The notes below the pieces were generated by a model that made no database searches, was not told the DNA's origin, and saw only the letters and a program-made list of their open reading frames with translations. From an uncultured Candidatus Saccharibacteria bacterium (GTDB lineage: Bacteria > Patescibacteriota > Minisyncoccia > Phycocordibacterales > DAORIS01): a stretch of 64,000 nucleotides of DNA. Each line of letters starts with the position of its first letter. The first letter of the stretch is position 1. Location of the stretch: contig CAZXUH010000002.1 in the NCBI GenBank assembly GCA_964644035.1, forward strand, positions 756 through 64,755. The letters are read 5' to 3'. A program made the translations under genes and the position numbers. Shown one piece after another: positions 5,523 through 62,031 of the stretch.

Positions 5523-7022
5523 ATGAATTTTGCAAAAGTGCACAGTGCACAAACTTTTTTACTAAAAGCTCACATTATCGATATAGAAGTAGACATATCA
5601 AGAGGCATGCATGCCTTTTCAATCGTAGGCTTGCCTGACAAAGCAGTAGAGGAGGCGAGGGATAGAGTAGCAGCAGCTATCAAACATGCAGGCTTTGTTT
5701 CACCCAAACAATCCAATCAAAAAATAACTATTTCATTGGCACCAGCTCATGTCAGAAAAGAGGGGCCGCATTTTGATTTGGGTATAGCGATAGCGTATTT
5801 GATTGCCAAAGAAGAAATATCCTACGAGGCAAACAAAACTCTTTTCCTTGGGGAACTATCGCTCGATGGAATGATCCGTCCGATACGAGGTACGCTGCCC
5901 TTGGTTGCTCATGCAAAAGAAGTTGGATTCAATGCCGTCTTTCTTCCAAAAGAAAATGCTAAAGAAGCAGCATTGATCGAGGGAATAAATATATTTGGAG
6001 CTTCATCGATCCATGAAGTACTTAAACATATTTCAAGCGACTCATTGATATCTTCTCAGCCAAAAACTATTCTCGAAGAAAATGAGAAGCTTGAAGTTAT
6101 TGATATCTCCGAAATAGCTGGGCAAGAAGTGGCGAAGAGGGCACTACTGATCGCGGCGGCAGGCGGACACAACATGGCACTCTGGGGACCACCCGGTACT
6201 GGCAAGACCATGCTGGCAAAATCATTTAGAGGAATTTTACCGGATCTGACATTTGAAGAATCATTGGAGGTCACATCAATACACTCTGTCGCAGGATTGC
6301 TCAAAGAAAGTTTAATGGTATTGCCCCCATTTAGGTCACCGCACCATACTGCTTCGTATAGTTCACTTGTGGGTGGAGGAACTGTACCTAAACCCGGAGA
6401 AGTAACACTCGCTCACAAGGGAGTTTTATTTTTGGATGAATTACCTGAATTTGATTCCAAAGTACTCGATGCACTCAGAGAACCGCTCGAGGAACATTCG
6501 GTAAGTATATCGAGAGTCAAAGGTAGTGGACATTTTCCAGCAGATTTTATTCTGATTGCTGCACTCAATCCTTGTCCGTGCGGAAATTATGAGTCAGCAG
6601 GTCGAACATGCACCTGTCCACCGCAGATTATTGATAAATATAGAGGCAGAGTATCAGGACCGATCGTCGATAGAATAGATATGTGGGTTGAAGTATCAAC
6701 AGTGCACTATGAAAAAATGTATTCGAAAAACGAGACACTGACTTCTGTAGATTTGCGTAAGAAAGTAGAATTCGCCAGAGAAAAACAAAGACAGAGATCA
6801 AAATATATAAATAGCAGAGTGCCGAGAAAATTTATAGACCAATTAAATATAGAAAAGAGTAGTCTTAACCTTCTCAATTCTTCTGCAGAAAGATTGGGTT
6901 TGTCGGGAAGGAGTTACCATAAGATTATTCGCTTAGCCCGAACAATTGCTGATATAGAAAATGCAGATCAGGTACTTCCAGCACATATACTGGAAGCACT
7001 GCAATATCGAAAGAAGTATTAG
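5523..7022 (+). CDS. comM: YifB/ComM Mg-chelatase-like AAA+ ATPase
   Basis: N-terminal Lon-protease-like (ChlI) domain, Walker A GPPGTGKT, and the C-terminal Mg-chelatase subunit ChlI domain. 499 aa. Confidence 0.9.
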   Translation: MNFAKVHSAQTFLLKAHIIDIEVDISRGMHAFSIVGLPDKAVEEARDRVAAAIKHAGFVSPKQSNQKITISLAPAHVRKEGPHFDLGIAIAYLIAKEEISYEANKTLFLGELSLDGMIRPIRGTLPLVAHAKEVGFNAVFLPKENAKEAALIEGINIFGASSIHEVLKHISSDSLISSQPKTILEENEKLEVIDISEIAGQEVAKRALLIAAAGGHNMALWGPPGTGKTMLAKSFRGILPDLTFEESLEVTSIHSVAGLLKESLMVLPPFRSPHHTASYSSLVGGGTVPKPGEVTLAHKGVLFLDELPEFDSKVLDALREPLEEHSVSISRVKGSGHFPADFILIAALNPCPCGNYESAGRTCTCPPQIIDKYRGRVSGPIVDRIDMWVEVSTVHYEKMYSKNETLTSVDLRKKVEFAREKQRQRSKYINSRVPRKFIDQLNIEKSSLNLLNSSAERLGLSGRSYHKIIRLARTIADIENADQVLPAHILEALQYRKKY

Positions 7023-7990
7023 AAAGGATTTTTACCGCCGCGAACTTCAAAGTGTAGATGTATACCAGTTGCTTTACCTGATGCGCCCATTTTACCTACT
7101 TGCTGTCCCTGAACAACCGTTTCACCCACACCAACAGATACTTCGGAGAGGTGGGCATAGAGAGTTTGCATACCATTTGGATGACTTATAACAACGTAGC
7201 TTCCGTAACCACCATTCCAACCGGCGCTTCTACTGATTACTACAGTTCCGCCGGCAGCCGCTACAATCGGAGCACCCATCTTACTTGCAAGATCAACGCC
7301 ATTGTAACCGTGTATACCCTGAGTACGTCGAGCACCAGAAACTGGATTGATAAAGTATCCTGTTGAATCTTTGCCGGCGCTTGCAGAGATAAGAACACCG
7401 TTGGCGCCACCAGATTTGACCGTTGAAGTTGTTTTTACAGGTGCTGAAAGGACCAATTCACCATCAGGAATAATGACTGTATCACCAACTGCGAGAGTAG
7501 CATTGTCGGCAAGGGCATTGAAAGACCTGATTTCGGCTTCATCGGCCTTGTATTTCTTGGCAATAGTCTGAATCGTATCGCCTTTCTTAACAATATGCGA
7601 AACGCCGCTCACTGGAAGAATGACGAGAGTCTGGCCAGGCTTGATCCTATCCTTGGTAGTGAGATTGTTGGACCACATGACGGTATTGACCGACACTTGG
7701 AACATTTCCGCGATCTGGCTGAGGGTATCGCCTTCGCGAACAACGTATGTACTAATGAGTTGGCTATGCTTCTGAGAAACATCCTCCGTAGGGACAGCCA
7801 AAGCATCGTGATCAACTACAAGTTCATCCTGAAGAGTGTAGTTACCAGCCACCAAAGCCTCCATAGTCTGAGAATTTTGCCGTGGAACCTCTGCCTTTAC
7901 CTTTGTAGTCACAAAAAAGCTCTTTACCGTCGTAAAAATGTTTGCCTGAGCTCTCAAATACGGGAAAAAGACCAGCACAAAAAAACACAC
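7019..7990 (-). CDS. LysM-domain M23 peptidase (peptidoglycan endopeptidase)
   Basis: Two LysM-like repeats (VREGDTLSQIAEMF, VKKGDTIQTIAKKY) and an M23 catalytic region ...HGYNGVDL...GIHLHFEVR. Confidence 0.85.
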   Translation of the reverse strand: MCFFVLVFFPYLRAQANIFTTVKSFFVTTKVKAEVPRQNSQTMEALVAGNYTLQDELVVDHDALAVPTEDVSQKHSQLISTYVVREGDTLSQIAEMFQVSVNTVMWSNNLTTKDRIKPGQTLVILPVSGVSHIVKKGDTIQTIAKKYKADEAEIRSFNALADNATLAVGDTVIIPDGELVLSAPVKTTSTVKSGGANGVLISASAGKDSTGYFINPVSGARRTQGIHGYNGVDLASKMGAPIVAAAGGTVVISRSAGWNGGYGSYVVISHPNGMQTLYAHLSEVSVGVGETVVQGQQVGKMGASGKATGIHLHFEVRGGKNPF

Positions 7991-10252: not shown

Positions 10253-11065
10253 ATGGAACAAAAAATAATCGCTAAAAAATCTCTCGGTCAAAATTTTCTA
10301 AAGTGCGGTTGGGCACTTTCTGCTATTGTCTCTTCAGCCAAAATAGAATCCAATGAAACCGTGCTCGAAATCGGACCGGGCAAAGGAATTCTTACTGCAC
10401 TCTTGCTCAAAAAGAGCGCTCATGTACTTGCAGTAGAAAAAGACGATAGAATGATTCCATATCTACAAGAAAAATTTTCTCAGGAAATATCCAACGGCAA
10501 ACTAGAAATCATTCATGGCGACATACTCGAGGAGCATATTCAGAAAGATGTGTTTGAACGCCTTGAAAAAACGGGGGACTATAAGCTGATTGCAAATATA
10601 CCGTATTACATTACAGGCCAACTTATAGAGAACTTCTTGTCAGCACAGCAGCAACCAAAAAAAATGGTGTTGATGCTGCAAAAAGAAGTCACCAAAAGAA
10701 TTGTCTCGACTGACAAAAAAGAAAGTATATTGTCGATTTCCGTCAAAGCCTACGGCACGCCATGCAAAGTAGCGGACGTGCCACGCTCTTGTTTCTCTCC
10801 AAGTCCCAATGTTGACTCGGCTATTTTGGAAGTAAGTGACATTTCAAAAAAGTTTTTCGGCGATGTTACTGAAGATTACTTTTTTAATGTACTAAAGACA
10901 GGTTTTGCTCATAAAAGAAAAATTTTAAGTGGAAATCTATCGGAAAAATTTGATAAATCTCATATCCAAGAAATATTTACCTCACTCGGCCTAGAAAAGA
11001 ATATCCGCGCAGAAAATATACCTGTTGAAATGTGGTTCAAAATCGCTGAGGGTTTGAAAAACTAA
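10253..11065 (+). CDS. rsmA: 16S rRNA (adenine1518/1519-N6)-dimethyltransferase
   Basis: LGQNFL N-terminal motif and the SAM-binding EIGPGKGILT. 270 aa. Confidence 0.9.
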   Translation: MEQKIIAKKSLGQNFLKCGWALSAIVSSAKIESNETVLEIGPGKGILTALLLKKSAHVLAVEKDDRMIPYLQEKFSQEISNGKLEIIHGDILEEHIQKDVFERLEKTGDYKLIANIPYYITGQLIENFLSAQQQPKKMVLMLQKEVTKRIVSTDKKESILSISVKAYGTPCKVADVPRSCFSPSPNVDSAILEVSDISKKFFGDVTEDYFFNVLKTGFAHKRKILSGNLSEKFDKSHIQEIFTSLGLEKNIRAENIPVEMWFKIAEGLKN

Positions 11066-11449: not shown

Positions 11450-12541
11450 TTACTTTACTATTATAAATGATGCTGTCGGTGTCATTCCATTTTCATTTCC
11501 GACCATAATCGGCATCGAAAACTTCGTGCCCGGATCTTTAACCATTACATCTTTGATGATATTTTGATACTGGAACGATGACAATGAAAAAGTAAGTGTC
11601 TTGCCGTCCAAAGATGCGACACCCTCAAGAATACCTATTGAAGTAGCAATAGTATTGTTTGAATTGAAACCAGTACCAGTCAGAGTGACTGTGTCCTGAA
11701 GGGTTGCTTCGGCAGGTGAGACTGTGTTTATGACTGGAACATTTGCTGCGGTATTACCAACAGTAATTTTTGCGAGCGATCCAGATACTTCTGACTTACC
11801 TCGCACATTTGAAACACCAATTTCATAGGTGCCCAGTGAAATACTACTTGGCACCGTGACTTTAATCGTAGTGCCATCTGCCGAGCTAATATTTTCCAAT
11901 GTCGCAGCATTGCCTATATATACAGTATTGCCTGTCGGCATGAAACCTGTACCCTGTATTGTTATTGTTGTACTTGCCACAAGTTTATAAGGCGTCACAC
12001 CATATACTTTTACTTTCTGAAGAAAGTTTCTTACTTCAATCGGCAAAAGAGGAGAATCAAAATATCCTTCATTGGAATTTGAAGTAGAGACAACTTGATT
12101 GTTTATCGTTTGATTATTTGCCGTCATATTACTTGCAGGGTTGGAACTTACCTCAATAATTTGATTTGAATTATTCTGGACAGTTTTTGCATTCAATTCA
12201 TTGAGCTTTATGCGAGTGAGAGAACCGACAAATCCCGTGCCGCTTGTAAGGCTAGCTTTGACCAAAATATCTTGTCTATACGTTTCTTGAAAACGAATCA
12301 CTGCATTTTTAGTGAGATTGCCAAAATAAGTAGTTTCATTGCCAGGAGAACCAGGACCAATGCTTGCAATTTTGCTATTAGCCTGAGAATTGAGAAGTTT
12401 TTGCAGAGCAAGCACGTCAGAACCCTCATCACCGACAGTAAGATTGCGACTAAAAGTGAAATTGTTCTGAGCAAAAGCAGTCAAAAACACGCTAGTGAAG
12501 CAAAAAATAGAAACGAAACCTGCTAAAATTATTTTTTTCAT
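11450..12541 (-). CDS. secreted protein with peptidoglycan-binding-like domain and Ig/TIG-like repeats
   Basis: Signal peptide, then ...LTVGDEGSDVLALQKLLNSQ... (PG_binding_1-like), then T/S-rich beta-repeat regions. Confidence 0.5.
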   Translation of the reverse strand: MKKIILAGFVSIFCFTSVFLTAFAQNNFTFSRNLTVGDEGSDVLALQKLLNSQANSKIASIGPGSPGNETTYFGNLTKNAVIRFQETYRQDILVKASLTSGTGFVGSLTRIKLNELNAKTVQNNSNQIIEVSSNPASNMTANNQTINNQVVSTSNSNEGYFDSPLLPIEVRNFLQKVKVYGVTPYKLVASTTITIQGTGFMPTGNTVYIGNAATLENISSADGTTIKVTVPSSISLGTYEIGVSNVRGKSEVSGSLAKITVGNTAANVPVINTVSPAEATLQDTVTLTGTGFNSNNTIATSIGILEGVASLDGKTLTFSLSSFQYQNIIKDVMVKDPGTKFSMPIMVGNENGMTPTASFIIVK

Positions 12542-12589
12542 AAAATACCATCAAAGTATACCATCATAGCGATTGAGATTGCAGGGTAA

Positions 12590-13420
12590 TTGGTATATCA
12601 TTGTCCTATGAAGAGATTATTTAAAGGTCCTATTTTTATTGCACTGACCATTGTCTTTAGTCTCTTAGCAATTGTCGGTGCTTACCGCTATAGACACTCT
12701 CAAGAAGCGACGGTATATAGCTCTTCTACAGGATCTACGACCCCTTTGACGATTTTGGCTGAAAATATATCGGACGAAGACTGGCAGGAGCTCCTGAATA
12801 GGGTGGGTGAGACACAAAATAGCACAAATACGGCTCCATTGAGCAATTCTGACGTGATTTCTAGGGAAATATTTGCCCAATTTGTCTATACCAAGCAGCA
12901 AGGCAAGAATATTACCCCTGAACAAGCCAAACTTATTGCCAATGACCTTATAAAATATGCCGATTCTATCGATGTACCCCTCAAACAGTACACCCCTGCG
13001 GACATAAAAGTGGTCAAAAACCCCACTCAAAATGACATTGTGACCTACAGAAACCAGCTCAACAGCATCGTATTTTCAGAAAAACAGGAAATTGGCAATG
13101 AATTGGTCATTATGCAGGAGGCAGTGGTAGACAACAACCTCGAAAATATGTCCAAACTGAAAGGAATTTCTGATTTTTACAATAAAATTGCCTTTCAACT
13201 CCTCGCTGTAAGCGCTCCAGCACCTATTGCGCAAGAGCATCTCGATATAGTCAACCTTTATTTGCGAATTGCCAAAGACGTAAAGTCATTCGACAAACTT
13301 AAAAACGATCCTATCATCGCTGCGAAGAATTTTGGAGACTACAGTAATGCCGATTTGGCCCTTTTTAAGACCTTTCAAAAAATCATGGTTTATTTTGAGT
13401 CACAGGGTGTTGATTTCTAA
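12590..13420 (+). CDS. hypothetical membrane-anchored protein
   Basis: 276 aa. The N-terminal TM IFIALTIVFSLLAIVGAY is followed by a soluble domain. It is the first gene of the + strand T4SS-like block. Confidence 0.45.
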   Translation: MVYHCPMKRLFKGPIFIALTIVFSLLAIVGAYRYRHSQEATVYSSSTGSTTPLTILAENISDEDWQELLNRVGETQNSTNTAPLSNSDVISREIFAQFVYTKQQGKNITPEQAKLIANDLIKYADSIDVPLKQYTPADIKVVKNPTQNDIVTYRNQLNSIVFSEKQEIGNELVIMQEAVVDNNLENMSKLKGISDFYNKIAFQLLAVSAPAPIAQEHLDIVNLYLRIAKDVKSFDKLKNDPIIAAKNFGDYSNADLALFKTFQKIMVYFESQGVDF

Positions 13421-13455
13421 AAAGACATTGAAAAATATGTGTTAAAATAAACTGG

Positions 13456-15105
13456 ATGACATCTTGGAAATTGAAATCCATCTCCTTTGTTTTGTTTGTT
13501 GCCATAATCGCACCATCATTAGTTTGGATTTTTGCTCCGAAGACACAAGTTGAGGCTGCAATTTTTAATTGTGCACCTTCCGTTGCAGAGCAGGTAACAC
13601 GAACGGGGGCACAAACCGCTGAAAATGCTGCCTACAGCACACTTGGAGTTCCGGTTGATATTGGACCAGTTTATAAAACAAGTCTTACACAAGGTGCAGG
13701 TGCAGCAGTAAGTGATAATCGAAAGACGAGCTGCATGGATGGTATTGGTTGGATGCTCGCAAAAATTGCCGTCGCATATATTACACAGTCAGTAGTGCAA
13801 TGGATCAATAGTGGCTTCAATGGATCACCAACATTCATCACTGATCCAAAAGGATTCATACTTAAAGTGGCCGACGAGCAATTTGCAAATATTATGACCA
13901 CGCTATTTCCATCGACCAGTGGTCTTGCGGATCTGGTCTGTAGTCCATTTAGTTTGGATATAAAATTAAAGTTGGCACTCAAATTTAATTTCAATTATAA
14001 ACGTCTCAACATACCAAGCGGCTGTAGCTTGACCGATATTAGTAACAATATCGGAGGAGCTGTCGGGGGAGCACAACAAAGTATTACAGAACAGTACAAT
14101 GATTTTACCAGTGGAAATTTCAGTAATGGCGGATGGGATCGATGGTATGAGATTACACAAAATTCCGACAACAATAAATACGGCGCAGAGCTCAACACAG
14201 ATATTGCAGTCACCGCTGCAATAGAAGACGCACAAGGACAAGAAGTTGATTTACTCAATTCAAACAATTGGTTTAAATCACTCACAAAAGGAGAGGGGAA
14301 TATCACAGGTGCTATAAACAGTATTATTACTCCTGGAAAACAAATCCAAGGAATGCTCTCAAACAGTATCCAAGATCCGACAGATGAACTAAAACTTGCA
14401 GACAGTATTGATGAAATTGTTGGTGCGCTTATCCAACAATTGATTGGTCAGGCAATCGGCGATGGTGGTATTGCTGGACTCAGCCAAACAGATACAAGTG
14501 AGGGTCAAACATCAAGCTATGCTGATCAAATACTTGAGGAACGTAATGCAATGGAAGAAGAGAATACAAATGATCAAAATACTATTCCTCAGCCACCTGG
14601 CTTACCTACATCAACACCTCCAATATCGGGTGGCGGACAACCAAATACTCCGACAAACGTCGCTCTCAACAAACGTCCTCAGCAATCGAGCAACTATGCT
14701 GGTTCGACCGGAGCTATAAAAGCCGTGGATGGAATGACCCAAGATGTTCCTGTACAGGATTTTTATGCTATTACCAATAGCCAAGTACAAGCATGGTGGC
14801 AAGTTGATCTCGAACAAAGTGAAGACATTGGTAGCATTGAAGTTTGGCCTCGAGGTGATGCGACCGATCCGCTCAACAACTTCTACGTATTGGTTTCCGA
14901 TCAACCAATATCAGGAAGTCTCGATCAGATTATTGCTGACAGTAGTGTGAGGAAGTTTAGAATTTCTGGAGGTATTGCAAATCCTCCTCAGGTCATCAAT
15001 GTCAATGGAATGGGTCGATATGTTCGCGTGCAACGTGCTGATACCACTCCAAAATTTCTTGAGCTTTTGGAAGTGAGAGTAATTTCAAGACCAACTGAAA
15101 ATTAG
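13456..15105 (+). CDS. secreted protein with C-terminal F5/8 type C (discoidin) domain
   Basis: Signal peptide. The C-terminal ~140 aa (...AWWQVDLEQSEDIGSIEVWPRGD...RYVRVQRAD...LELLEVRV) fit the discoidin/F5_F8_type_C pattern. Confidence 0.55.
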   Translation: MTSWKLKSISFVLFVAIIAPSLVWIFAPKTQVEAAIFNCAPSVAEQVTRTGAQTAENAAYSTLGVPVDIGPVYKTSLTQGAGAAVSDNRKTSCMDGIGWMLAKIAVAYITQSVVQWINSGFNGSPTFITDPKGFILKVADEQFANIMTTLFPSTSGLADLVCSPFSLDIKLKLALKFNFNYKRLNIPSGCSLTDISNNIGGAVGGAQQSITEQYNDFTSGNFSNGGWDRWYEITQNSDNNKYGAELNTDIAVTAAIEDAQGQEVDLLNSNNWFKSLTKGEGNITGAINSIITPGKQIQGMLSNSIQDPTDELKLADSIDEIVGALIQQLIGQAIGDGGIAGLSQTDTSEGQTSSYADQILEERNAMEEENTNDQNTIPQPPGLPTSTPPISGGGQPNTPTNVALNKRPQQSSNYAGSTGAIKAVDGMTQDVPVQDFYAITNSQVQAWWQVDLEQSEDIGSIEVWPRGDATDPLNNFYVLVSDQPISGSLDQIIADSSVRKFRISGGIANPPQVINVNGMGRYVRVQRADTTPKFLELLEVRVISRPTEN

Positions 15106-18652: not shown

Positions 18653-19108
18653 GTGCATAATATAGTCATGCAATTTCAGGTTCCTCAATTTATCGAAGTA
18701 GAAGATAAGATTTTCGGACCACTGACAATCCGCCAGTTCATCTATATTGCCGGCGGAGCAGGTATGGGCTATATCTGCTATGCTCTCTTGCCCTTGATCT
18801 TGGCTATACCTGCTATCGGCGCTGTCGGCACACTTACATTTCTATTGGCTTTTTATAAGTACAATAACCGTCCTTTTATCTATTTTGTCGAATCGGCTTT
18901 TAAATACAGGACCAATAATCGGCTCTATATATGGAAAAAGGATCAGCCTACGCCAAAAGCTCAGGAGGAAAAGAAAAAAGCTGCAGATCAACCAAAACTT
19001 TTTGTCCCAAAGCTCTCAGATAGCAAACTCAAAGACCTAACTTGGAGTCTTGATATCCGTGAAAGTCAAAATCCGCTGACAGGTAAAGATAACGAGACGA
19101 ATACATAA
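18653..19108 (+). CDS. VirB3/PrgI-like small membrane protein (T4SS)
   Basis: 151 aa with two adjacent TM helices near the N-terminus. It is encoded directly upstream of VirB4, the conserved VirB3 position. Confidence 0.45.
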   Translation: MHNIVMQFQVPQFIEVEDKIFGPLTIRQFIYIAGGAGMGYICYALLPLILAIPAIGAVGTLTFLLAFYKYNNRPFIYFVESAFKYRTNNRLYIWKKDQPTPKAQEEKKKAADQPKLFVPKLSDSKLKDLTWSLDIRESQNPLTGKDNETNT

Positions 19109-19154: not shown

Positions 19155-19796
19155 ATGGCACCTATATCAGAAAGCGCAAAGGCAACGCAAGATTTCGTAC
19201 CGATTCAGGAGGTTCGAGACGGTGTTATTGTACTCAAAGATGGCTCGCTACGAGCTGTAGTACTTGTTTCATCGATCAACTTCGACCTCAAATCAGAAGA
19301 TGAACAGAAATCCATCCTTTTTCAATTCCAAAACTTCCTCAACTCCCTCGATTTCTCTATTCAAATGTTCATCCAGTCGAGAAAGCTCGATATACGCCCA
19401 TATATAGCGCTTTTACAGGGCAGACTCAAGGAGCAAACCAATGATCTTATGAAGGTTCAGGTGCAAGAATACATAGAATTCATCAAGAAATTCACCGATT
19501 CGAGTAATATCATGTCAAAAAGCTTCTTTATTGTTGTTTCCTATGCTCCTGCAACACTGACAATAAAAAGAAATCCTCTTTCAAAACTGTTTGGTAAGGG
19601 TGAATCGACACAAACTGTCGAAAATACAAAGTTTGAAGAAGCACGAAGCCAGCTCGAAGAGCGTGTATCGGTCATAGAGCAGGGTCTTGTACGCACCGGA
19701 GTCAGAGCAGCACGCTTGGGCACAGAAGAAGTGGTCGAACTCTTCTATAAGATGTTCAATCCTGGCGACACCGAGAAGCCGATTATTCAATTATAA
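19155..19796 (+). CDS. virB4: VirB4-family protein, N-terminal domain fragment (Gram-positive TcpF/Orf16/PrgJ-type N-terminus)
   Basis: ...FVPIQEVRDGVIVLKDGSLRAVVLVSSINFDLKSEDEQKSILFQFQNFLNSLDFSIQMFIQ... resembles the N-terminal ~200 aa of monoderm VirB4 ATPases, from my recollection of Tn916 Orf16-like proteins. It stops 8 nt before the ATPase ORF in another frame. Confidence 0.6.
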   Translation: MAPISESAKATQDFVPIQEVRDGVIVLKDGSLRAVVLVSSINFDLKSEDEQKSILFQFQNFLNSLDFSIQMFIQSRKLDIRPYIALLQGRLKEQTNDLMKVQVQEYIEFIKKFTDSSNIMSKSFFIVVSYAPATLTIKRNPLSKLFGKGESTQTVENTKFEEARSQLEERVSVIEQGLVRTGVRAARLGTEEVVELFYKMFNPGDTEKPIIQL

Positions 19797-21642: not shown

Positions 21643-22343
21643 AGCGTCATGCAAAAAAAATAGGAATATTTACTTGTATAGCCCTAATAATTGCTGCTGG
21701 ATTTTTTGACCTTATACAATTTTTACTCGATCTTGTGGTGGCAGGTTTGATTGCGGATACTATTTTAGCCTTACTGTTCTTTATACCTCTCAATTTATGG
21801 CTTTTACTGACAGGTAGACTCAATGGAAAAGTGGCTGCCAATTCATTGATAGCTTTTATTATAGGTCTCATACCAGTCATAAACGCTCTTCCAGAGTGTT
21901 TGTATGCAGTGGTAATGATTATTATTTTTAATAATCTAAAAGAAATCCTTCAGGTTGTAACAAAGATGGCTCCGTATATGAAAACTGCAGCAAAATTTGT
22001 TCCACCCTTGCAAGCCCCAGTAAAAACAATCGAGGTTGTACAGAAAATAGACAAAGCAACAGGAGGAAATATAGCTAAGAAGATAGCAAAAGAAACTCAA
22101 ACAGGCGACCAGACGCTCGATTTTAAGTCATTTGATGGCTCAACACAGGCTCAAAACTATACAAATGGCGTTGCAAACCAAGTTCTTGTCATAAAAAAGA
22201 AGGGTGGTTTGACTGAAAATACCCTTGATCTGCAAAATAAAATGCAGTCTGCAGCTGACAGACCAAGTGGAAATCTTCCCCAAATTTCAAATAGGAAAGG
22301 TGTTACAATAGAGGGTGCAAATGAAAAAAGGCCTATTGCATAA
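21639..22343 (+). CDS. hypothetical T4SS-associated membrane protein
   Basis: 234 aa. Three or four N-terminal TM helices and a hydrophilic C-terminus. The start ATGA overlaps the VirB4 stop, indicating translational coupling. Confidence 0.45.
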   Translation: MKRHAKKIGIFTCIALIIAAGFFDLIQFLLDLVVAGLIADTILALLFFIPLNLWLLLTGRLNGKVAANSLIAFIIGLIPVINALPECLYAVVMIIIFNNLKEILQVVTKMAPYMKTAAKFVPPLQAPVKTIEVVQKIDKATGGNIAKKIAKETQTGDQTLDFKSFDGSTQAQNYTNGVANQVLVIKKKGGLTENTLDLQNKMQSAADRPSGNLPQISNRKGVTIEGANEKRPIA

Positions 22344-23313
22344 CATCGCTATTTTCACCACTCTCTTGATAGCGGTTTTTGTCTGTGGCATAACTTCTAC
22401 TCATGCAGAAGTGACCAATCCTTCTGACGTAACATCTATTATCTCCACTGTCAGCCCTGAGTATCCGAAAGCGTTTGATGAAGTTACTATTTCTATCAAG
22501 AGTTATGCTATGGACCTACAACGATCACTTATACGTTGGTATGTCGATGGAAAACTACTGTCAGAAAAGACTGCACTGACACAACTATCAGTACAAGCAG
22601 GGAATTATGGCACCACAAAGACAGTAAAAATACAGGTTATTGCTGCCGATGGTAGAGTAGCTGAAAAATCAATCTTTATAACACCTTCGGATTTGAGCCT
22701 TGTATGGCAAGCTGATACGTATACCCCTCCTTTTTATAAAGGAAAGCGTCTCTATAGCGCTAGCTCAGACATACTCATGATGGCAATACCAAGTGGTAAG
22801 TACGATTCAGATAAAATTATCTTTACATGGAAACAAGATGCCGACGTCATACCAAATAGTGGGGGGCTTGGAAAAAACACTATTACTATTCCAGGAACAC
22901 TTGTCACCAGAGAGAAAATGATCATTGTAGAAGCAATTTCTGTCGATGGTACCTATCATGCACGTCAGATAGTTACTCTGTCTCCAATTTTTACAAAAGT
23001 ATTGATGTACGAAAACAATCCACTGTTTGGAGTATGGTATGAAAACGCTTTGGTAAAAAACCAAACTATCGCATCAGCAGAATTCAAAGTGGCAGCATAT
23101 CCATTCTTTTTCTCTACAAAAAGCAGATTTTTGGATGATGTTCAGTATCTCTGGAGCGTAAACGGTGCAGGAGCAACGACAGCCTCTGGTAAAAGTTCTA
23201 TAACTCTCCAAAGGGATCAGAGTATTTCCAAAGCAGGTCTAGGTGTTGAGGCTCGGCATAAAAGCAAAATACTGCAAGATGCAAAAACATCAGTAAATCT
23301 AAACTTTAAATAA
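22315..23313 (+). CDS. secreted protein with internal ~100-aa beta-rich repeats
   Basis: Signal peptide (IAIFTTLLIAVFVCGITSTHA) and repeated Ig-like modules (...IRWYVDGKLL..., ...IIFTWKQDADV..., ...VQYLWSVNGAG...). Confidence 0.45.
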   Translation: MQMKKGLLHNIAIFTTLLIAVFVCGITSTHAEVTNPSDVTSIISTVSPEYPKAFDEVTISIKSYAMDLQRSLIRWYVDGKLLSEKTALTQLSVQAGNYGTTKTVKIQVIAADGRVAEKSIFITPSDLSLVWQADTYTPPFYKGKRLYSASSDILMMAIPSGKYDSDKIIFTWKQDADVIPNSGGLGKNTITIPGTLVTREKMIIVEAISVDGTYHARQIVTLSPIFTKVLMYENNPLFGVWYENALVKNQTIASAEFKVAAYPFFFSTKSRFLDDVQYLWSVNGAGATTASGKSSITLQRDQSISKAGLGVEARHKSKILQDAKTSVNLNFK

Positions 23314-23314
23314 T

Positions 23315-24244
23315 ATGACCCAAACTATTTCAACTTTGTATTTTAAAAAAATAATTTCACTACTAGTCTTTTTAACAGCTATTATCGCTGGTTTTTCTTT
23401 TTTAACTTCACTGACGCATGCTGTAGAGATAGACACCAGTTACGATCCACTTGTTAAGATTGAAGGTGTCACCGATGCCCAAACAACCGATGCAGATATT
23501 GGTTCTTATGTATCAGGTGCATATAAATGGACGATTTCGCTCGCAATTGCCTTGGCGGTGATCATGTTTACCTTCTACGCTTTTCAATACCTACTTTCCG
23601 AATCTACTATTACGAGCAAAGCTCATGCAAAAGAGGGGATGAAGAATGTTATTATCGGTCTTTTACTTATTTTTGCAGCATATCTCGTACTCCAGACAAT
23701 CAACCCTCAACTTGTAGCATTCAATTTAACCTTAGATTTGCCCGAAGCTACTTCGGTTTCAGAATCAGATAATGGTTGTGCTGGAGCAGATATAAAACCA
23801 ACTGGTGTAGGAGTTTATTACATTACAAATATAGAATGCCGAAAAGCTATTCCAGGCAGTGATCAGTTCGTTACTACTCAAGCAACGCGTTACAACGTGT
23901 ACAGTGGCTCTATTAATAGATGCCAGCAAGATGTGAGGGATGGGAATCTAGGTAACAATGTTGTCGGATGTGTAATATACAGCTCCAATTGGATTATTCG
24001 CCAAAGAATACAACTAACTGCCTCTCAAGAAGGTGGTGCTGACTACTCTGAATCCACATACTATCCTTCTGATCTAAGTAAGGGCTGGAGTACGGAGGGA
24101 GAGTGCCAAGCTCAAATTCCAAACTACGGTAAAACCGATATACCTGCATACTGTGCTGAAGAAAGAGCGGGGGAATGGGAATTTTTTGGTTGCTCTGTTA
24201 TAAAAGAATGTCATCGATACGACGGTAATATCACTACTGAATAA
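23315..24244 (+). CDS. VirB2/TrbC-like pilin-topology protein fused to a Cys-rich C-terminal domain
   Basis: Signal peptide, a ~40-aa spacer, then two TM helices (ISLAIALAVIMFTFYAFQYL / VIIGLLLIFAAYLVLQTI) as in T4SS pilins. The C-terminal ~170 aa carry 9 Cys. Confidence 0.45.
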   Translation: MTQTISTLYFKKIISLLVFLTAIIAGFSFLTSLTHAVEIDTSYDPLVKIEGVTDAQTTDADIGSYVSGAYKWTISLAIALAVIMFTFYAFQYLLSESTITSKAHAKEGMKNVIIGLLLIFAAYLVLQTINPQLVAFNLTLDLPEATSVSESDNGCAGADIKPTGVGVYYITNIECRKAIPGSDQFVTTQATRYNVYSGSINRCQQDVRDGNLGNNVVGCVIYSSNWIIRQRIQLTASQEGGADYSESTYYPSDLSKGWSTEGECQAQIPNYGKTDIPAYCAEERAGEWEFFGCSVIKECHRYDGNITTE

Positions 24245-24250
24245 ACAATT

Positions 24251-25555
24251 ATGCTATCAAAAAAAACACTTCTCCTATTTCTAGTTCTCGTCCTGCTTGC
24301 AGTCGGAGCAGCGTTTTATTTTGTATCAGTAAATAAGCAGGGTGGAACGGTTCTTAATAGCGTTAGAAACCTTCTTCCTTTTGGCAGCAACGATATTTCT
24401 TCTGGCAGCATAGGAACTCCCTCGGATAATATTCCGGGTGGAACAGAGGACGAACCTATTGTTGTTAATACAAATACCGATGCACCAGTACCGGTCTTTA
24501 GAAAAATTGCAGATGGACCAGTATCTGGCTTCACAGTATTTACTAGACAACGCACTGAAATTCGTGAAGGTAAGAAAGTAACGATTACTGAAACACCTAT
24601 TAGATACATTGAGCGAAAAAACGGCAATGTCTTTGAAACATTCTCAACATCGACACGAACAAATCGTCTTACCAACACTACCTATCCACGTATTCAGGAA
24701 GCATTCTTTACCAATACAGGAAATTCTCTTGTTATCAGAAGCCTTGGTGACACAGATGAAATAAAAACATATCTTGCTGATATTATTTTGCCAGAAACAA
24801 CTTCTACTTCTACGGTTTTTGATGAAGAATCACTTGGATCTCTCAAGGGCTTCTATATTAAGGACGATGTTTCTTTTGTAGACATTTCTCCTGATACCAA
24901 AACAATACTTCTTGCTACAGAAGACGTATCAGGTACCTCTATTCAGACTATAGATACAAAAGGTGGTGGTACAAAAAATATATTTAGCTCAAGACTAGGG
25001 GAATGGCTCGTACAGTGGTATAGCGCCGACACAATCGCCCTTACATCTAAACCTTCTTCTGGTGTTAATGGTCTCACCATGCTTCAGAATATTAGAAATA
25101 GCACATCTGAGAAACCAGTTACCAATGTCCCTGGCCTCACTTCTCTCGTCAATTCTAAGGGCGATAAAATTCTATTCTCACAAGCCCAGAACAAAGGCTT
25201 CGCACTTGGATATTATGATAAAAAAACCGGTCTAAAGACCCAAGCAGACAGACCAACCCTTCCAGAAAAATGCGTCTGGTCAAAGAAACAAACAAATATC
25301 GTATACTGTCTTGTGCCAAACATAGTCAACAGTGGAACATATCCGGATGATTGGTATCAGGGTACTATTAGTTTTACTGACAGCATCTGGAAACTAGACA
25401 CAACTTCAAATTCTATCTCTTCTCTCTATGATCCTGCAGATACGGACAACGCTGAAATAGACGGTATTAGACCAGCACTTTCTCCAAACGAAGATTATCT
25501 TATCTTTATGAATAAAAAAGACGGTTCACTCTGGTCACTCAAACTCGAAATCTAG
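24251..25555 (+). CDS. secreted/membrane-anchored protein with beta-propeller-like (TolB/PD40-like) C-terminal region
   Basis: N-terminal TM (LLLFLVLVLLAVGAAFYFV). C-terminal repeats such as ...KGDKILFSQ..., ...NIVYCL..., ...YLIFMNKKDGSLWSL... resemble PD40/WD-like blades. Confidence 0.4.
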   Translation: MLSKKTLLLFLVLVLLAVGAAFYFVSVNKQGGTVLNSVRNLLPFGSNDISSGSIGTPSDNIPGGTEDEPIVVNTNTDAPVPVFRKIADGPVSGFTVFTRQRTEIREGKKVTITETPIRYIERKNGNVFETFSTSTRTNRLTNTTYPRIQEAFFTNTGNSLVIRSLGDTDEIKTYLADIILPETTSTSTVFDEESLGSLKGFYIKDDVSFVDISPDTKTILLATEDVSGTSIQTIDTKGGGTKNIFSSRLGEWLVQWYSADTIALTSKPSSGVNGLTMLQNIRNSTSEKPVTNVPGLTSLVNSKGDKILFSQAQNKGFALGYYDKKTGLKTQADRPTLPEKCVWSKKQTNIVYCLVPNIVNSGTYPDDWYQGTISFTDSIWKLDTTSNSISSLYDPADTDNAEIDGIRPALSPNEDYLIFMNKKDGSLWSLKLEI

Positions 25556-35897: not shown

Positions 35898-35930
35898 TAA
35901 AAAACACAACTTGTTAAGTTGTGTTTTTTA
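35898..35930. terminator. bidirectional Rho-independent terminator (ends pilB transcript)
   Basis: AAAAAACACAACTT-gtt-AAGTTGTGTTTTTT, a perfect hairpin flanked by an A-run and a T-run. Confidence 0.75.
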
Positions 35931-37631
35931 TATCGTAAGTGCCGGATCGGACTTTTTTTGTATATCATCGAGGTCAACAACACGCTCGAGCTCTTCAATG
36001 GTTGTTAAACCTGTAATAACCTTGAGAATTCCATCTTGTTGGAGTGTAAAAATACCCTGTGGAGCAGCTGCGGTGCGTATATCACGCTCGCTGGGGTTGT
36101 TGATAACTGTTTTTTCAATTGCTTCATCGGTCACGATCGCTTCATAGACTCCAATTCGGCCAACATAGCCAGTCATATTGCATTTGGCACAGCCGACAGG
36201 CTTATATATAGTCCACGCTGAAGGTATTTTTGTCTTATCTGGAATGGTTGCGAGAATATCATCGATCGTTTTCTTATCCATAGCATTGATTTCTATTTTT
36301 TCTCGGCAATCTGGGCAGAGTTTGCGCACCAAACGTTGTGCCATCGACAGACTGAGTGCTGAAGTAAGGATTTTTGGATTGACACCGAGGTCTATAAGTC
36401 GGGGATAGGTGCCGGCAGCATTATTGGTATGCAATGTAGAGAAGACAAGGTGACCAGTGAGCGATGCATTGACCGCAATCTCGGCAGTTTCTTGGTCTCG
36501 GATTTCACCAACCATGATTACGTCCGGATCTTGTCGGAGTGCTGCTCGCAGTCCTGAGAGGAAGGTATAACCTTTTTCACTATCGGTCTGTGTTTGAACA
36601 ATACCTGGTAGATGATATTCAATCGGGTTTTCAATAGTAATGATTTTTACTTCTGGTTTGTGAATTTTCTTAAGAAAAGCATAGAGAGTAGTGGTTTTTC
36701 CAGAACCAGTGGGGCCGGTGGTCAGGATCATGCCGTTGGGTTTAGTAAGAGATTTTTGTATGACTTCCAAAAGTGCATCGCTAATGCCAAGATCTTCGAG
36801 TGGTACGCCGATCGATTCAGGATTGAGAATACGCATGACGACAGAATCATTGTATGCACCAGGCAAAATCGAAGTTCTGATTTCTATATCTGACTTTTCG
36901 ATCTTAATACTGAATCTTCCATCTTGAGAATTGCCTTTTGTATTGAGTTTCAAGCCCGAAAGAAGCTTGATACGTGAAAGAATAAGAGAATAAGTGCTGG
37001 TATCAAACTGCACAATATCGACAAGGACACCGTCGAGACGATATCGCAGGCGTACATATGATTGTTCGGGTTCTATGTGTATATCAGAAGCATTGGTTGC
37101 GAGTCCGCCGGAGAGAATGATTTCCAAAATTTTAGAAATACGATGACTTTTCTTCAGAGCCAACGTTTCTTCAATAAGTTTTTTAACATCAGGGAGAGTC
37201 CTGACGTTTTTTAGTATTTCATTGATCTCTTCATTGGAAATATCAAGAGCGCCAGCCTTGGTTTCAAAAGAAAAAGACAAATCTTTGTAACGTGCCCAGA
37301 CACTTTCAAGACTGTTCATGGAAACGATATGCAAATCTACCTCGTATCCTTTTTGTTTGAGCTCGGCGATGAAATCAATAGTTTTTTGATTATTAGGAGC
37401 AGCGACTGCCATTTCAACTTTTCGTGCCATAACACTAAAGGGAGCAATAAGTGCTTCACGAGCTTTTGCTTCGTCGACTATTCGCAGTGCTTCGACATTG
37501 ATCGGTGTAATCGTTAGGTCGGCGTAGGGGATGGAGTACTTTGTCGACAATGCTCGGGCTAGATTTTCTTCATCTAGGTCCTTGAGCTCCTTGGACATCT
37601 TTTTCTGCTTCTCATCATCGAAGACAATCAT
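35928..37631 (-). CDS. pilB: type IV pilus assembly ATPase PilB (GspE family)
   Basis: N-terminal GSPII_E_N-like region, Walker A GPTGSGKTTT, Asp/His boxes, and a tetracysteine CPDC...CAKC. The start is taken at MIVFDDEK; the ORF track extends to 37778. Confidence 0.85.
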   Translation of the reverse strand: MIVFDDEKQKKMSKELKDLDEENLARALSTKYSIPYADLTITPINVEALRIVDEAKAREALIAPFSVMARKVEMAVAAPNNQKTIDFIAELKQKGYEVDLHIVSMNSLESVWARYKDLSFSFETKAGALDISNEEINEILKNVRTLPDVKKLIEETLALKKSHRISKILEIILSGGLATNASDIHIEPEQSYVRLRYRLDGVLVDIVQFDTSTYSLILSRIKLLSGLKLNTKGNSQDGRFSIKIEKSDIEIRTSILPGAYNDSVVMRILNPESIGVPLEDLGISDALLEVIQKSLTKPNGMILTTGPTGSGKTTTLYAFLKKIHKPEVKIITIENPIEYHLPGIVQTQTDSEKGYTFLSGLRAALRQDPDVIMVGEIRDQETAEIAVNASLTGHLVFSTLHTNNAAGTYPRLIDLGVNPKILTSALSLSMAQRLVRKLCPDCREKIEINAMDKKTIDDILATIPDKTKIPSAWTIYKPVGCAKCNMTGYVGRIGVYEAIVTDEAIEKTVINNPSERDIRTAAAPQGIFTLQQDGILKVITGLTTIEELERVVDLDDIQKKSDPALTI

Positions 37632-37805
37632 GTTCCATATTCTAGCATACACCGTCACAATTAAGCTCCTTAAAACACCCCTTTCTAGGCCTAAAATAGC
37701 CCAGCTAAGCTTATTGACAAGTGCTATATAAATATGATATAATATACACGGAGTACGATCATTGAATGAATCAATCAAAACATTTTCCCAATGAAAGGGG
37801 AATTT

Positions 37806-48388: not shown

Positions 48389-48709
48389 CTAACGAATGAC
48401 TGCATTCCAGTCGTATCCGCAGTCGCTACAGTGGAGGGGACAGGTGCCTTCTTCAGGTGGACCGGCTGTTTGCCATGATTTTTGACCACATTGAGGACAT
48501 TTTGTACCGGATTTTTCCAGTCTGATCCTCAGCATGCAGGTGTTTATGACCATGGCGATGATAACCACCAGTCCGAGTGTTCCTGAGCAAAGTACGACTT
48601 TGCTATTGAGGTTCATTTTTCCGCTTGCCCAATATACAAAAGAGACAAGGACCACGACCAAAAGAATGAACTTAAGTTCAGACTTGATCGACTTCAGAAT
48701 TGTTTTCAT
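48389..48709 (-). CDS. membrane-anchored zinc-ribbon protein
   Basis: Two TM helices, then C-terminal CPQCG...CPLHCSDCGYDW cysteine pairs. Confidence 0.5.
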   Translation of the reverse strand: MKTILKSIKSELKFILLVVVLVSFVYWASGKMNLNSKVVLCSGTLGLVVIIAMVINTCMLRIRLEKSGTKCPQCGQKSWQTAGPPEEGTCPLHCSDCGYDWNAVIR

Positions 48710-50218: not shown

Positions 50219-50548
50219 ATGAATATCATTCCTATCGGAATTCTTGTTTTACTGATCCTGCTTTTGTTTGTTTCGAGACTTTGTCAAAGGTTCTTAAACA
50301 GGAGGAGAGCGATAAAAAGGGAAGGTGAAGGTTGTTGCACGGTGTGCGGATATGACCTTAGGGAATCTTCTAGAACATGTCCCGAATGTGGCGCGCCAGC
50401 TAACCCTTACAACCTCTCAAACCCACACTGTGGAGCGAGTGGTTGCGGCTATCTGACTGTTCGCTATGGCAATGAGTGCAAATGTCCCAATTGCGGAAAG
50501 TGGTGCGTATGGAAAGAAAATAAATATAGTGAAGTACAAGCCGAGTAG
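50219..50548 (+). CDS. membrane-anchored Cys-rich double zinc-ribbon protein
   Basis: N-terminal TM, then CCTVCGYDL...CPECG and CGASGCG...CKCPNCGKWC. It shares the C..CGYD motif with the 48389-48709 product. Confidence 0.45.
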   Translation: MNIIPIGILVLLILLLFVSRLCQRFLNRRRAIKREGEGCCTVCGYDLRESSRTCPECGAPANPYNLSNPHCGASGCGYLTVRYGNECKCPNCGKWCVWKENKYSEVQAE

Positions 50549-58136: not shown

Positions 58137-58171
58137 CCGTCTTCTTACAAAAATATGAAGACGGTTTTTTT
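58137..58171. terminator. Rho-independent terminator
   Basis: CCGTCTTC...GAAGACGG followed by TTTTTTT. Confidence 0.7.
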
Positions 58172-59603
58172 ATTTACTCACTGTGAAAAAAGATTCTCGG
58201 CTTTGTACTGTTCGGGTACACATATCACGATATTCTTTTGGAGTAATTTCACATAGTTTTTGTCCAGCAGACAAAGATCCTTCTTGATTCATATACATAC
58301 TCACTATTCCTGAAACGCATGATTCTTGATCGAGATATGAACCAGCTTCTTTGCATATAGAAAAAACATTGGCCGGATTGTTCATATTTCGCTTTATTGC
58401 TTCTGTGCCGACGCCTCTAATACATGTAGATTTGTATCCTGTTTCTGCTTTTTCACATTCTTTTAAGATAGTAGAAAAATCTTTGCCAGAAGTTTGTGAA
58501 AGATAGGTTGGAATATATACATAGCAATCATTTTTGGCAGTCTTTCTTGTCGAACACGTCAGGAATGGATTTTCTGGATTCACAAATTCTTTTTCTTTGG
58601 CAAGAATTTCTAGATTGAACACTTCCATATACACTCCGTTCTGACAGCTTTCAATAGCTTCATTTCCTTTGAGACCATCGCTACAGAGTTTCAGCGATGC
58701 ATCGAGATCTCCACCAGTCAGATACATAAAGCCGTGGCCAATACCATGGTGACATTGCCATAGATCGAAGGGTCTTTTACCTGCGCCATATTCATTGCAT
58801 TGAGCGCTCAGATTGGCGAGGGGATCTTCTGCAGACTTAAAATAGGCCTCAAATAGGCCGTGAATATAGCCAGAATTGCAGAAATCTTCCTGAAACTTTA
58901 CTGCTTCCTTGAAACTGCCGTATTTGTCGTATGCAGTATGTCCTATGACATGCAACATATCGTGACAGAGCGACATAGTCTGACTATTTTCCAAAGATTC
59001 TTCTTTTAATACATGAATTGCTTCATCCGGGTCTTGATCGGTAACTATTTTTTCAAAACGATTTTTCAGATCTGTGTAAAATTGCGTGTTTGTAGCACCA
59101 GATTTTAAAGCAGTACTTTCTTTGGGTTTGATAATAAATATTTTCTTAAGACAGTCTAAAATAATTTGAAAAATACTTCTGCCGATATTTATTTCTCCTT
59201 TATATTGCGGCCATAGATGATCGTGCAGGGAATAGGTTCCAGCTTTTTCAAAAACAAATGACCATGATTGTCCGCTTGGAATGGGTTTGCAGGCATCAAA
59301 AGAAGTAGAGTTGTGCGATGCACAGTGTTCTTCAAGACTGGTGCCGTCATAGAGTGTGTGACTTGGATGATCGTCCGATGCAGGCCAGCGATCTTCTGTG
59401 CTCGTATTTTCAAAAATAACTTTGGTACCAATCTTCACTTTTATTTTGCTCGGTTCAAAACCCTTTTCACTCATATGAATAGTGACTGCATTTTCTTCCA
59501 CACTTTCATGGGCAGATACGTTTACTATCTGAAAGCAGAATAAAAATAGTACACACACTGCTATTTTCAAAAGAAATATTTTGTTGAGAGGATAGAGTCT
59601 CAT
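58170..59603 (-). CDS. secreted Cys-rich protein with N-terminal cupredoxin-like domain
   Basis: Signal peptide. Residues ~45-140 (...VTIHMSEKGFEPSKIKVKIGTKVIFEN...HPSH...C...GTYSLHDHLWP...) resemble a cupredoxin fold. The following ~340 aa contain many Cys. Confidence 0.5.
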   Translation of the reverse strand: MRLYPLNKIFLLKIAVCVLFLFCFQIVNVSAHESVEENAVTIHMSEKGFEPSKIKVKIGTKVIFENTSTEDRWPASDDHPSHTLYDGTSLEEHCASHNSTSFDACKPIPSGQSWSFVFEKAGTYSLHDHLWPQYKGEINIGRSIFQIILDCLKKIFIIKPKESTALKSGATNTQFYTDLKNRFEKIVTDQDPDEAIHVLKEESLENSQTMSLCHDMLHVIGHTAYDKYGSFKEAVKFQEDFCNSGYIHGLFEAYFKSAEDPLANLSAQCNEYGAGKRPFDLWQCHHGIGHGFMYLTGGDLDASLKLCSDGLKGNEAIESCQNGVYMEVFNLEILAKEKEFVNPENPFLTCSTRKTAKNDCYVYIPTYLSQTSGKDFSTILKECEKAETGYKSTCIRGVGTEAIKRNMNNPANVFSICKEAGSYLDQESCVSGIVSMYMNQEGSLSAGQKLCEITPKEYRDMCTRTVQSRESFFTVSK

Positions 59604-61781: not shown

Positions 61782-61865
61782 ATGCGCAGGTGGCGAAATT
61801 GGTAGACGCACTACCTTGAGGTGGTAGCGCCCGCAAGGGTATGGAAGTTCGAGTCTTCTCCTGCG
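61782..61865 (+). tRNA. tRNA-Leu (anticodon GAG), class II
   Basis: Acceptor GCGCAGG/CCTGCGC, anticodon stem CTACC/GGTAG with loop TTGAGGT, a long variable arm, and T-loop TTCGAGT. Confidence 0.85.
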
Positions 61866-61956
61866 CACAAGTAGCATCAATAATTTTAATTAGCGATGTT
61901 ATCACAAACAACGGGCGAACAGGCATTCGTCTGATCGCTCATTTGTTTGTAAGTAT

Positions 61957-62031
61957 GGTGGCTATAGTTTAGTGGTAAAACTCGGGTTTGTGGAACCCGT
62001 ATCGAGAGTTCGATTCTCTCTAGCCACCCCA
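61957..62031 (+). tRNA. tRNA-His (anticodon GUG) with G-1 and encoded CCA
   Basis: G-1 plus acceptor GTGGCTA/TAGCCAC, anticodon stem CGGGT/ACCCG with loop TTGTGGA, T-loop TTCGATT, and 3' CCCCA. Confidence 0.85.

Follow-up and report, generated by a model that had tools for sequence, protein, structure and literature searches.

What might a pilin of a type IV secretion system (T4SS), usually a small protein, do with a large ectodomain? The question is raised by a gene in a stretch of 64,000 nucleotides from an uncultured Candidatus Saccharibacteria bacterium (contig CAZXUH010000002.1; the whole stretch is referred to here as the window). The gene occupies positions 23315–24244 of the + strand, starts with ATG and encodes a protein of 309 amino acids (aa), as a preliminary description of this DNA had stated. 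Our analysis shows that it belongs to a known kind, a T4SS_pilin within a Patescibacteria T4SS locus. Unusual are the size of its ectodomain, the orphan character of that domain, and its setting: the pilin C terminus is a hypervariable, modular slot across related Paceibacteria, in which hydrolase-type domains are also found. Taken as a whole, the interpretation we favor, with somewhat better than even confidence, is that the protein is a VirB2-like pilin bearing a lineage-specific, surface-displayed accessory domain that interacts with the host envelope, here most likely by binding.

A signal peptide and predicted helical hairpin in a T4SS pilin family

A Kyte-Doolittle scan of the protein delineates three hydrophobic segments, at approximately aa 10–33, 72–94 and 111–133. 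AlphaFold2 (AF2), applied to aa 37–140 with a 50-sequence alignment, models two long helices that pair as a hairpin with confidence: averaged over 10-residue blocks, the predicted local distance difference test (pLDDT) is 84–94 along most of both helices. The preliminary description had proposed a signal peptide followed by two transmembrane helices, and these results agree with it; a cleaved signal plus a single anchor would account for two hydrophobic segments, not three. Judging from the rule that small residues occupy positions −3 and −1, the signal peptide would be cleaved after A36. The loop between the helices carries lysines K102, K105 and K110 and, by the positive-inside rule, would be cytoplasmic; that rule and the topology of VirB2 and TraA together suggest a hairpin with both termini outside (N-out/C-out) and the basic loop on the inner side. 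Because of the signal peptide and the two-helix topology, the C-terminal domain would lie outside the cell. In an alignment of 69 pilins (A1), Y43 is invariant and L46, K102, L126, T128 and I129 are each at least 90% conserved, and the hairpin motifs GG..YM, K and TINP are conserved across the family.

Residues 69–128 match the Pfam family T4SS_pilin (PF18895) at 27.5 bits, marginally above the gathering cut-off of 26.6, and a precomputed PF18895 match exists for an identical protein on record (P0001). There is also a weak NCBIfam match to the Mbov_0395 pilin-like conjugal transfer family. A clade-specific hidden Markov model (HMM), built from 70 hairpin segments of syntenic pilins with the window's own included by way of contig L001, gives the protein 89 bits and recognizes no other open reading frame (ORF) in the 64-kb window, within which a search for paralogs found none. 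Like other PF18895 members, the protein combines a signal peptide with a two-helix hairpin and a short basic loop, as seen by hydropathy and AF2, and it is encoded in a T4SS cluster, where its gene follows VirB4 at a distance of 1.7 kb in a tightly packed, same-stranded series. It departs from them in size: typical members are small proteins of about 100–150 aa that are essentially the hairpin, whereas this one has 309 aa, including an extra domain of 170 aa. It is a domain-architecture variant of PF18895 and is not excluded from the family.

The link to canonical VirB2/TrbC pilins is an indirect one. The TrbC/VirB2 family (PF04956) has no match in the pilin at E ≤ 0.1; it is matched by 1 of 69 syntenic relatives and by the database homologs P0047 and P0050, and these match PF18895 too. 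What stands of the VirB2/TrbC architecture proposed earlier is the PF18895 module and the topology, accompanied neither by a PF04956 match nor by a sequence link to solved pilins.

The pilin C terminus is a variable slot in related loci

Using VirB4, we retrieved 80 loci from species-representative genomes, with VirB4 about 80% identical throughout. All are Patescibacteria metagenome-assembled genomes, most of them labeled as Parcubacteria, Paceibacterota, Zambryskibacteria or Taylorbacteria, and many labeled 'Candidatus Saccharibacteria'. In 67 of the 80, a homolog of the pilin hairpin lies between homologs of the 332-aa and 434-aa proteins that flank the pilin in the window (Table 1), and almost all related loci have the gene of the 332-aa homolog directly before that of the pilin. 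Compared with the window, median identity amounts to 80% for VirB4, 64% for TrsD, 54% for PrgI, 35% for the N-terminal part of the pilin (aa 1–139) and approximately 30% for the two flanking secreted proteins; for the C-terminal domain, none is detectable. An extension after the second transmembrane helix is present in 62 of the 69 syntenic pilins and measures 68–434 aa (median 188). BLASTP sorts these extensions into families of 10, 8, 6, 3, 2, 2 and 2 members plus 29 singletons, among which is the domain of the window. The pilin C terminus is thus a hypervariable, modular slot. That its content varies to this extent despite identities of about 80% in VirB4, 54% in PrgI and 35% in the hairpin supports our proposal that the extension is an accessory, exchangeable module.

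In part of the relatives, the occupant of the slot resembles known domains. Profiles of the two largest families, c1 (10 loci: L018, L046, L049, L053, L056, L059, L067, L069, L080 and L081) and c2 (8 loci: L023, L055, L060, L064, L066, L070, L071 and L077), match the N-terminal domain of Sonic/Indian hedgehog in the Protein Data Bank (PDB) over its zinc-binding motif (E = 0.002 for c2 and 0.6 for c1), with the His, Asp, His and Glu positions invariant; Pfam itself gives no match for either. On this profile evidence, the extensions of these 18 pilins are Hedgehog/DD-peptidase (LAS)-like domains. The extension in L026 is a He_PIG Ig-like domain. Locus L057 (JAIXXV010000012.1) has tandem T4SS_pilin-type genes, one with an NlpC/P60 domain (gene 11751–12830, domain at aa 288–344) and the other with an SLT domain (gene 12873–13859, domain at aa 233–304), the same pair of domain types as in monoderm VirB1-like proteins.

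An even number of cysteines is found in 47 of the 48 Cys-containing extensions (binomial P = 2e-13, calculated over a set that includes related sequences). Among the Cys-containing singletons, all counts are even but one (L041, with three). This is strong indirect evidence that the extensions are oxidatively folded outside the cell, which supports the C-out topology. The even counts also suggest systematic disulfide formation in surface proteins of these monoderm ultrasmall bacteria.

Pilin architecture in this group varies in other ways as well. One ORF (L013:11879–13300) contains two hairpins, and in P0002, L029:11463–12959 and L029:13008–14306 the hairpin is preceded by an N-terminal extension of 170–320 aa, which is Ala-rich in P0002.

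When the hairpin profile was run against a collection of 5.8 billion proteins, 47 further pilins were found, all of 101–154 aa. The closest, P0020, is 48% identical over 145 aa and is encoded on a 60-kb contig (L083) with the gene order of the window: an 879-aa protein, PrgI, TrsD, VirB4, the pilin, yidC, rnpA, dnaA, dnaN, PBP and tyrS. Identities to the window reach 90% for VirB4, 82% for DnaA, 76% for DnaN and 64% for YidC. The pilin on this contig ends 21 residues past the second transmembrane helix, with a tail rich in Pro, Thr and Ala, and the next gene follows after just 45 bp. Since it has no Cys-rich domain, the domain was either gained in the lineage of the window or lost in that of L083, and it is not required for the hairpin's own role.

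The reading frame is supported by independent assemblies

The ATG of the pilin gene lies two bases past the stop codon of the upstream 332-aa gene, and the next gene begins 7 bases after the pilin stop. A protein identical to the pilin (P0001) is recorded at NCBI and occurs in several Logan assemblies, which come from two runs, and one of the contigs, L001, an independent Logan assembly of 20.9 kb, is identical to the window at every base; because of these records, the gene is not an assembly accident. With L001 identical at the DNA level and the other contigs encoding an identical protein, no sequence variation was available for a dN/dS analysis. When the whole protein was used in a word-index search, the only matches were its identical copy and a single pilin extended at the N terminus.

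The long C-terminal part might nonetheless be an artefact of annotation or assembly, through fused ORFs or read-through, or a decaying remnant, and the lack of any homolog of the domain, its absence from the nearest relative and the failure of AF2 to fold it would each be in keeping with such an origin. We regard this as highly improbable. Besides the base-identical 20.9-kb contig and the gene of a second run, which gives the identical protein, the ORF fills the entire gap between its neighbors, and no competing ORF of more than 54 aa overlaps the C-terminal part. The GC content and the GC content at third codon positions (GC3) of the domain segment resemble those of neighboring genes, the eight cysteines are strongly non-random and even in number, and similar extensions are the rule at the syntenic locus. 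The same resemblance in GC and GC3 leaves the idea that the domain is a recent foreign acquisition unsupported.

The C-terminal domain is a Cys-rich orphan

For searches and for the cysteine statistic, the C-terminal domain was counted as approximately 170 aa (residues 140–309). Its eight cysteines are at aa 155, 175, 203, 219, 264, 280, 293 and 299, and the first 154 residues contain none. From the composition of 65 long ORFs of the window (0.82% Cys), 1.3 would be expected per 170 aa (binomial P = 7e-5). The preliminary description had counted nine; its own list of motifs also sums to eight. Apart from this miscount, its picture of a disulfide-rich extracellular module is supported by the Cys enrichment, the even counts across the syntenic extensions and the topology. 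The eight cysteines most likely form four disulfides, plausibly pairing neighbors at spacings of 20, 16, 16 and 6 residues.

The domain matches no Pfam family at E ≤ 10 and no PDB sequence, and phmmer, run exhaustively against 1.84 billion cluster representatives, found no homolog besides the domain itself. It has no match among the 80 related loci, and comparisons with the 62 syntenic extensions and their two Cys-rich clusters (phmmer --max, BLASTP and hhalign) gave nothing significant. We considered and rejected as a homolog P0003, a 1570-aa protein with Calx-beta/fn3-like repeats. The match covers 42 residues with no Cys aligned, and its phmmer E value of 4e-4 is summed over five repeat copies (best single BLASTP alignment, E = 8e-4); as a strand-loop-strand match, it is at most a hint at beta-sandwich structure. 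A recurring [FYW]-x-[ST]-x-x-x-C pattern, spotted by eye in several Cys-rich singletons, found no statistical support, and we do not claim it. A Foldseek search with a single-sequence model of the domain was disregarded as meaningless because of the model's pLDDT of 30–48.

With NlpC/P60 and SLT domains in the slot of L057, and with Hedgehog/DD-peptidase-like domains that retain intact zinc-ligand and catalytic residues in 18 of the 62 extensions, one could suppose that the domain of the window is likewise an envelope-degrading enzyme or toxin that goes unrecognized, whether VirB1-like or directed at the host cell wall, and that the hairpin tethers it. We think this unlikely. The domain contains a single His (H301) and therefore cannot form an H/D/H zinc site, so that the zinc ligands (H...D, H) and catalytic Glu/His of LAS-type enzymes are not found in it. 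In hhalign comparisons with c1 and c2, the probability does not exceed 0.1%. No hydrolase family, including NlpC/P60, CHAP and SLT, is detected at the Pfam threshold given above, nor is homology to any other enzyme family, which would have spoken against the preliminary description. Eight cysteines paired locally would be more typical of a structural scaffold, and hydrolase functions could come from two other proteins of the window, one with M23 and LysM domains (7019–7990) and one with PG_binding_1 and TIG domains (11450–12541). Recognizable adhesin or Ig-like domains (He_PIG, Calx-beta, fn3, discoidin and VirB5) are equally absent from the Pfam matches of the domain. Adhesin, the term used in the preliminary description, therefore names one possibility among others: no adhesin family matches, and the slot of relatives often holds domains of the cell-wall hydrolase type.

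A possible role in host-envelope interaction

In the interpretation that we favor, the protein would be the single VirB2-like pilin of a conserved, chromosomal, relaxase-less T4SS of Paceibacteria (Parcubacteria). Following Sec export and cleavage of the signal peptide, it would sit in the membrane as an N-out/C-out helical hairpin, with the short basic loop in the cytoplasm and the 170-residue C-terminal domain, most likely with four disulfides, outside the cell. The hairpin would serve as the conserved core that interacts with the T4SS or polymerizes, and the C-terminal domain as an exchangeable, lineage-specific accessory module exposed at the surface of the cell or pilus, from where it would act on the envelope of the host cell. 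Because the slot elsewhere holds Ig-like and peptidoglycan-directed domains, its general role would be in host-envelope interaction; the domain of the window most probably binds a host-surface structure. Surface display, polymerization and host binding are what we infer for this protein.

In VirB2 and TraA, both termini face the pilus exterior, such that a C-terminal domain would be surface-exposed. If the hairpin polymerizes, the domain would be expected along the shaft and not at the tip, because both pilin termini face outward in solved conjugative pili. A position at the tip, as in the earlier notion of an adhesin tip, does not follow: the domain belongs to the only pilin gene of the window, and in a polymer every subunit would carry it.

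Several observations weigh against this interpretation. The PF18895 score exceeds the cut-off by just 0.9 bits, and the hairpin profile finds no solved pilin among PDB sequences. Fold searches with the hairpin return generic helical hairpins and not VirB2 or TraA specifically; in this non-specific search, the Aeropyrum conjugation pilus does best among solved pilins but comes only 16th in rank (E = 3.3, target-normalized TM-score 0.68). The C-terminal domain has neither a homolog nor a recognizable binding or catalytic motif, its single-sequence AF2 model (pLDDT 30–48, tentatively beta-rich) is unusable, and the even-Cys statistic draws on sequences that are not independent. Many relatives hold enzymes, not binders, in the C-terminal slot. 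Pilus formation is not known for any Patescibacteria T4SS, and the hairpin may do no more than anchor the protein in the membrane. VirB2-type packing may, moreover, leave no room for 19 kDa of extra domain on each subunit.

Some of these points would suit a hairpin that never polymerizes and merely anchors a variable ectodomain beside the T4SS channel, with no pilus, an arrangement compatible with either role of the domain. T4SSs of the monoderm MPF-FATA type are generally without pili (PMC12102498, PMC12857230), and the hairpin, which has no sequence-level link to solved conjugative pilins, carries extensions of up to 434 aa, enzymes among them. We nevertheless find this arrangement doubtful, given that the hairpin is well conserved and has specific motifs (GG..YM, K and TINP), that some family members match PF04956, and that hairpin-only versions (101–154 aa) are common, one of them at the same locus in L083, which suggests a function of the hairpin's own.

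The interpretation of the protein as a pilin with a host-directed module can also be taken further, although we see this as a long shot. The Paceibacteria pilin would then be a display scaffold, with the hairpin polymerized into a conjugative-type pilus, presenting on every subunit an exchangeable ectodomain (a Cys-knotted binder here, peptidoglycan hydrolases in relatives) and forming a lineage-specific filament for host recognition and envelope breaching. The slot would set the episymbiotic host range, and the orphan domain would represent a new disulfide-rich fold.

A conserved chromosomal T4SS next to the origin of replication

PrgI, a TrsD-like protein and VirB4 are encoded upstream of the pilin on the same strand, in agreement with the T4SS-like context noted in the preliminary description. 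Its term island, in contrast, does not fit. On one side the cluster borders ksgA, and on the other yidC, rnpA, dnaA and dnaN; its GC content is uniform, and both GC and GC3 are ordinary. A scan of the large ORFs of the window turned up neither a relaxase nor a coupling protein, and the same synteny recurs in 67 of 80 related loci and in L083. The locus is a conserved chromosomal, relaxase-less core T4SS next to oriC.

This arrangement has a precedent. Quinonero-Coronel et al. describe an MPF-FATA-like T4SS of Patescibacteria with TrsD, PrgI, VirB4, VirB6 and VirB2-like pilins, usually without a relaxase and, notably in Paceibacteria, often beside dnaA, dnaN, rnpA and ksgA (PMC12102498); the layout of the window, from ksgA through the T4SS to yidC-rnpA-dnaA-dnaN, matches their description of Paceibacteria. 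VirB4 is split into a TrsD-like part and the ATPase, which appear as overlapping program-called ORFs in the window but are called as separate genes in L001 and L083, and the split is consistent with the TrsD component reported there. Southlakia epibionticum requires its T4SS genes, a pilin array among them, in order to grow epibiotically (PMC10633639; PMC12857230). What the T4SS of Patescibacteria does is not established (PMC11665869, PMC12857230).

Table 1. The pilin gene, its predicted parts and associated features. Positions refer to the window unless another contig is named.
Feature	Position	Strand	Evidence or remarks
ksgA	10253–11065		Flank of T4SS cluster, upstream side
Discoidin-domain protein	13456–15105	+	Upstream in T4SS cluster
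895-aa protein and 247-aa protein	Upstream of pilin	+	Tightly packed in T4SS cluster
PrgI (VirB3-like)	18653–19108	+	Pfam PF12666, E = 6e-12
TrsD-like N-terminal VirB4 gene	19155–19796	+	NCBIfam TrsD
VirB4 ATPase, CD1110-type	Start 19687 or 19807, end 21642	+	NCBIfam, 375 bits
Polytopic 234-aa protein	Upstream of pilin	+	T4SS cluster
Secreted 332-aa protein, conserved left neighbor of pilin	22315–23313	+	Homolog in 76 of 82 loci searched
Pilin ORF	23315–24244	+	ATG start, 309 aa; boundaries agree with preliminary description
Signal peptide, aa 1–36 (predicted)	23315–23422	+	Hydropathy; KK n-region, hydrophobic core aa 13–33, predicted cleavage after T-H-A36 (LTHA/VE)
Mature N-terminal segment, aa 37–71	23423–23527	+	Y43-x-x-L46 family motif; predicted outside membrane
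Transmembrane helix 1, aa 72–94 (predicted)	23528–23596	+	Hydropathy, Pfam T4SS_pilin match aa 69–128, AF2 helix
Lys-rich loop, 16 residues, aa 95–110, SESTITSKAHAKEGMK	23597–23644	+	Predicted cytoplasmic
Transmembrane helix 2, aa 111–133 (predicted)	23645–23713	+	Hydropathy, hairpin HMM, AF2; ends in family motif LQTINPQL
Linker, acidic, Ser/Thr-rich, aa 134–154	23714–23776	+	Read from sequence; AF2 low confidence, no regular structure
Orphan Cys-rich C-terminal domain, aa 155–309 plus stop codon	23777–24244	+	No Pfam, PDB or database homolog
434-aa N-terminally anchored protein, conserved right neighbor of pilin	24251–25555	+	Homolog in 62 loci
L083 pilin	L083:8001–8453		ENA ERZ25039521 contig_64504; 150 aa

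Several other genes of the window deserve mention. The large gene that comes first in the T4SS cluster (13456–15105) specifies a 549-aa protein that ends in an F5/8 type C domain (discoidin, galactose-binding-like) and is thereby a candidate for a carbohydrate-binding adhesin of this T4SS. Further Cys-rich ORFs encode two small membrane-anchored proteins with zinc-ribbon-like CxxC pairs (50219–50548, 12 Cys in 109 aa; 48389–48709, 7 Cys in 106 aa) and a cupredoxin-like protein of 477 aa with 19 Cys (58170–59603). A PilB/GspE-type ATPase (T2SSE and MshEN; 35928–37778) indicates that machinery for type IV pili or type II secretion is encoded in this genome too, which is usual in Patescibacteria. 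On the − strand, a large serine recombinase gene (62020–63615) lies directly beside two tRNA genes (61784–61867 and 61958–62028); the segment 60001–63615 has a raised GC content (0.47) and may mark the boundary of an integrated element.

Comparison with known systems

The closest counterparts are the PF18895 pilins of Patescibacteria (PMC12102498), including those of Southlakia (PMC10633639). With these the window pilin shares the signal peptide and the hairpin motifs, a score above the gathering cut-off, and a setting with PrgI, TrsD and VirB4 adjacent, near dnaA and without a relaxase. Typical members that we retrieved measure 101–154 aa, in contrast to 309 aa with a 170-aa Cys-rich domain here, and whereas the Southlakia pilins form an array, the window has a single pilin gene. 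A 'novel pilus system' of the candidate phyla radiation described on bioRxiv, which we considered as a further counterpart, is a donor-strand-exchange pilus and unrelated. The literature searched makes no mention of T4SS pilins with large C-terminal domains in Patescibacteria, which is not proof that they are undescribed.

With VirB2, TrbC and TraA (PF04956; the F, T and pKM101 pili), the window pilin has in common its predicted topology and linkage to a T4SS. Canonical conjugative pilins measure approximately 70–120 aa when mature, and their C termini are trimmed or cyclized. They lack a globular C-terminal extension, unlike the window pilin, which in turn has no PF04956 match and no sequence link to them and comes from a monoderm host with an MPF-FATA-like machine. 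A different comparison is suggested by the VirB1-like hydrolases of monoderms (PrgK/TcpG/TrsG type), which combine SLT with CHAP or NlpC/P60 domains. Pilins of relatives carry SLT, NlpC/P60 and LAS-type domains at the syntenic locus, in the manner of membrane-anchored T4SS envelope enzymes, but the domain of the window matches none of these families and is without their catalytic residues. Flagellin, with its D2/D3 domains, and type IV pilins, with their disulfide-bonded C-terminal region, offer an analogy, not a homology: in these too, a conserved assembly core is joined to a surface-exposed outer region that diverges rapidly, differs between lineages and is partly stabilized by disulfides. 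Their folds and machineries are unrelated to those of the window pilin, for which polymerization is hypothetical, and at its locus whole unrelated domains are exchanged or absent.

The comparison bears on a system of some consequence. The Patescibacteria T4SS is widespread, lies near the replication origin and is essential for growth on the host in the one species tested, and the pilin is its most exposed part. At the pilin C terminus, unrelated families (orphan Cys-rich, Ig-like and hydrolase-like) are swapped while the ATPase remains about 80% identical, making this terminus a candidate determinant of host specificity or envelope attack. Such pilins cast doubt on the notion that VirB2-like pilins are small: either these bacteria build decorated pili, or they have reused the pilin hairpin as a T4SS-associated membrane anchor.

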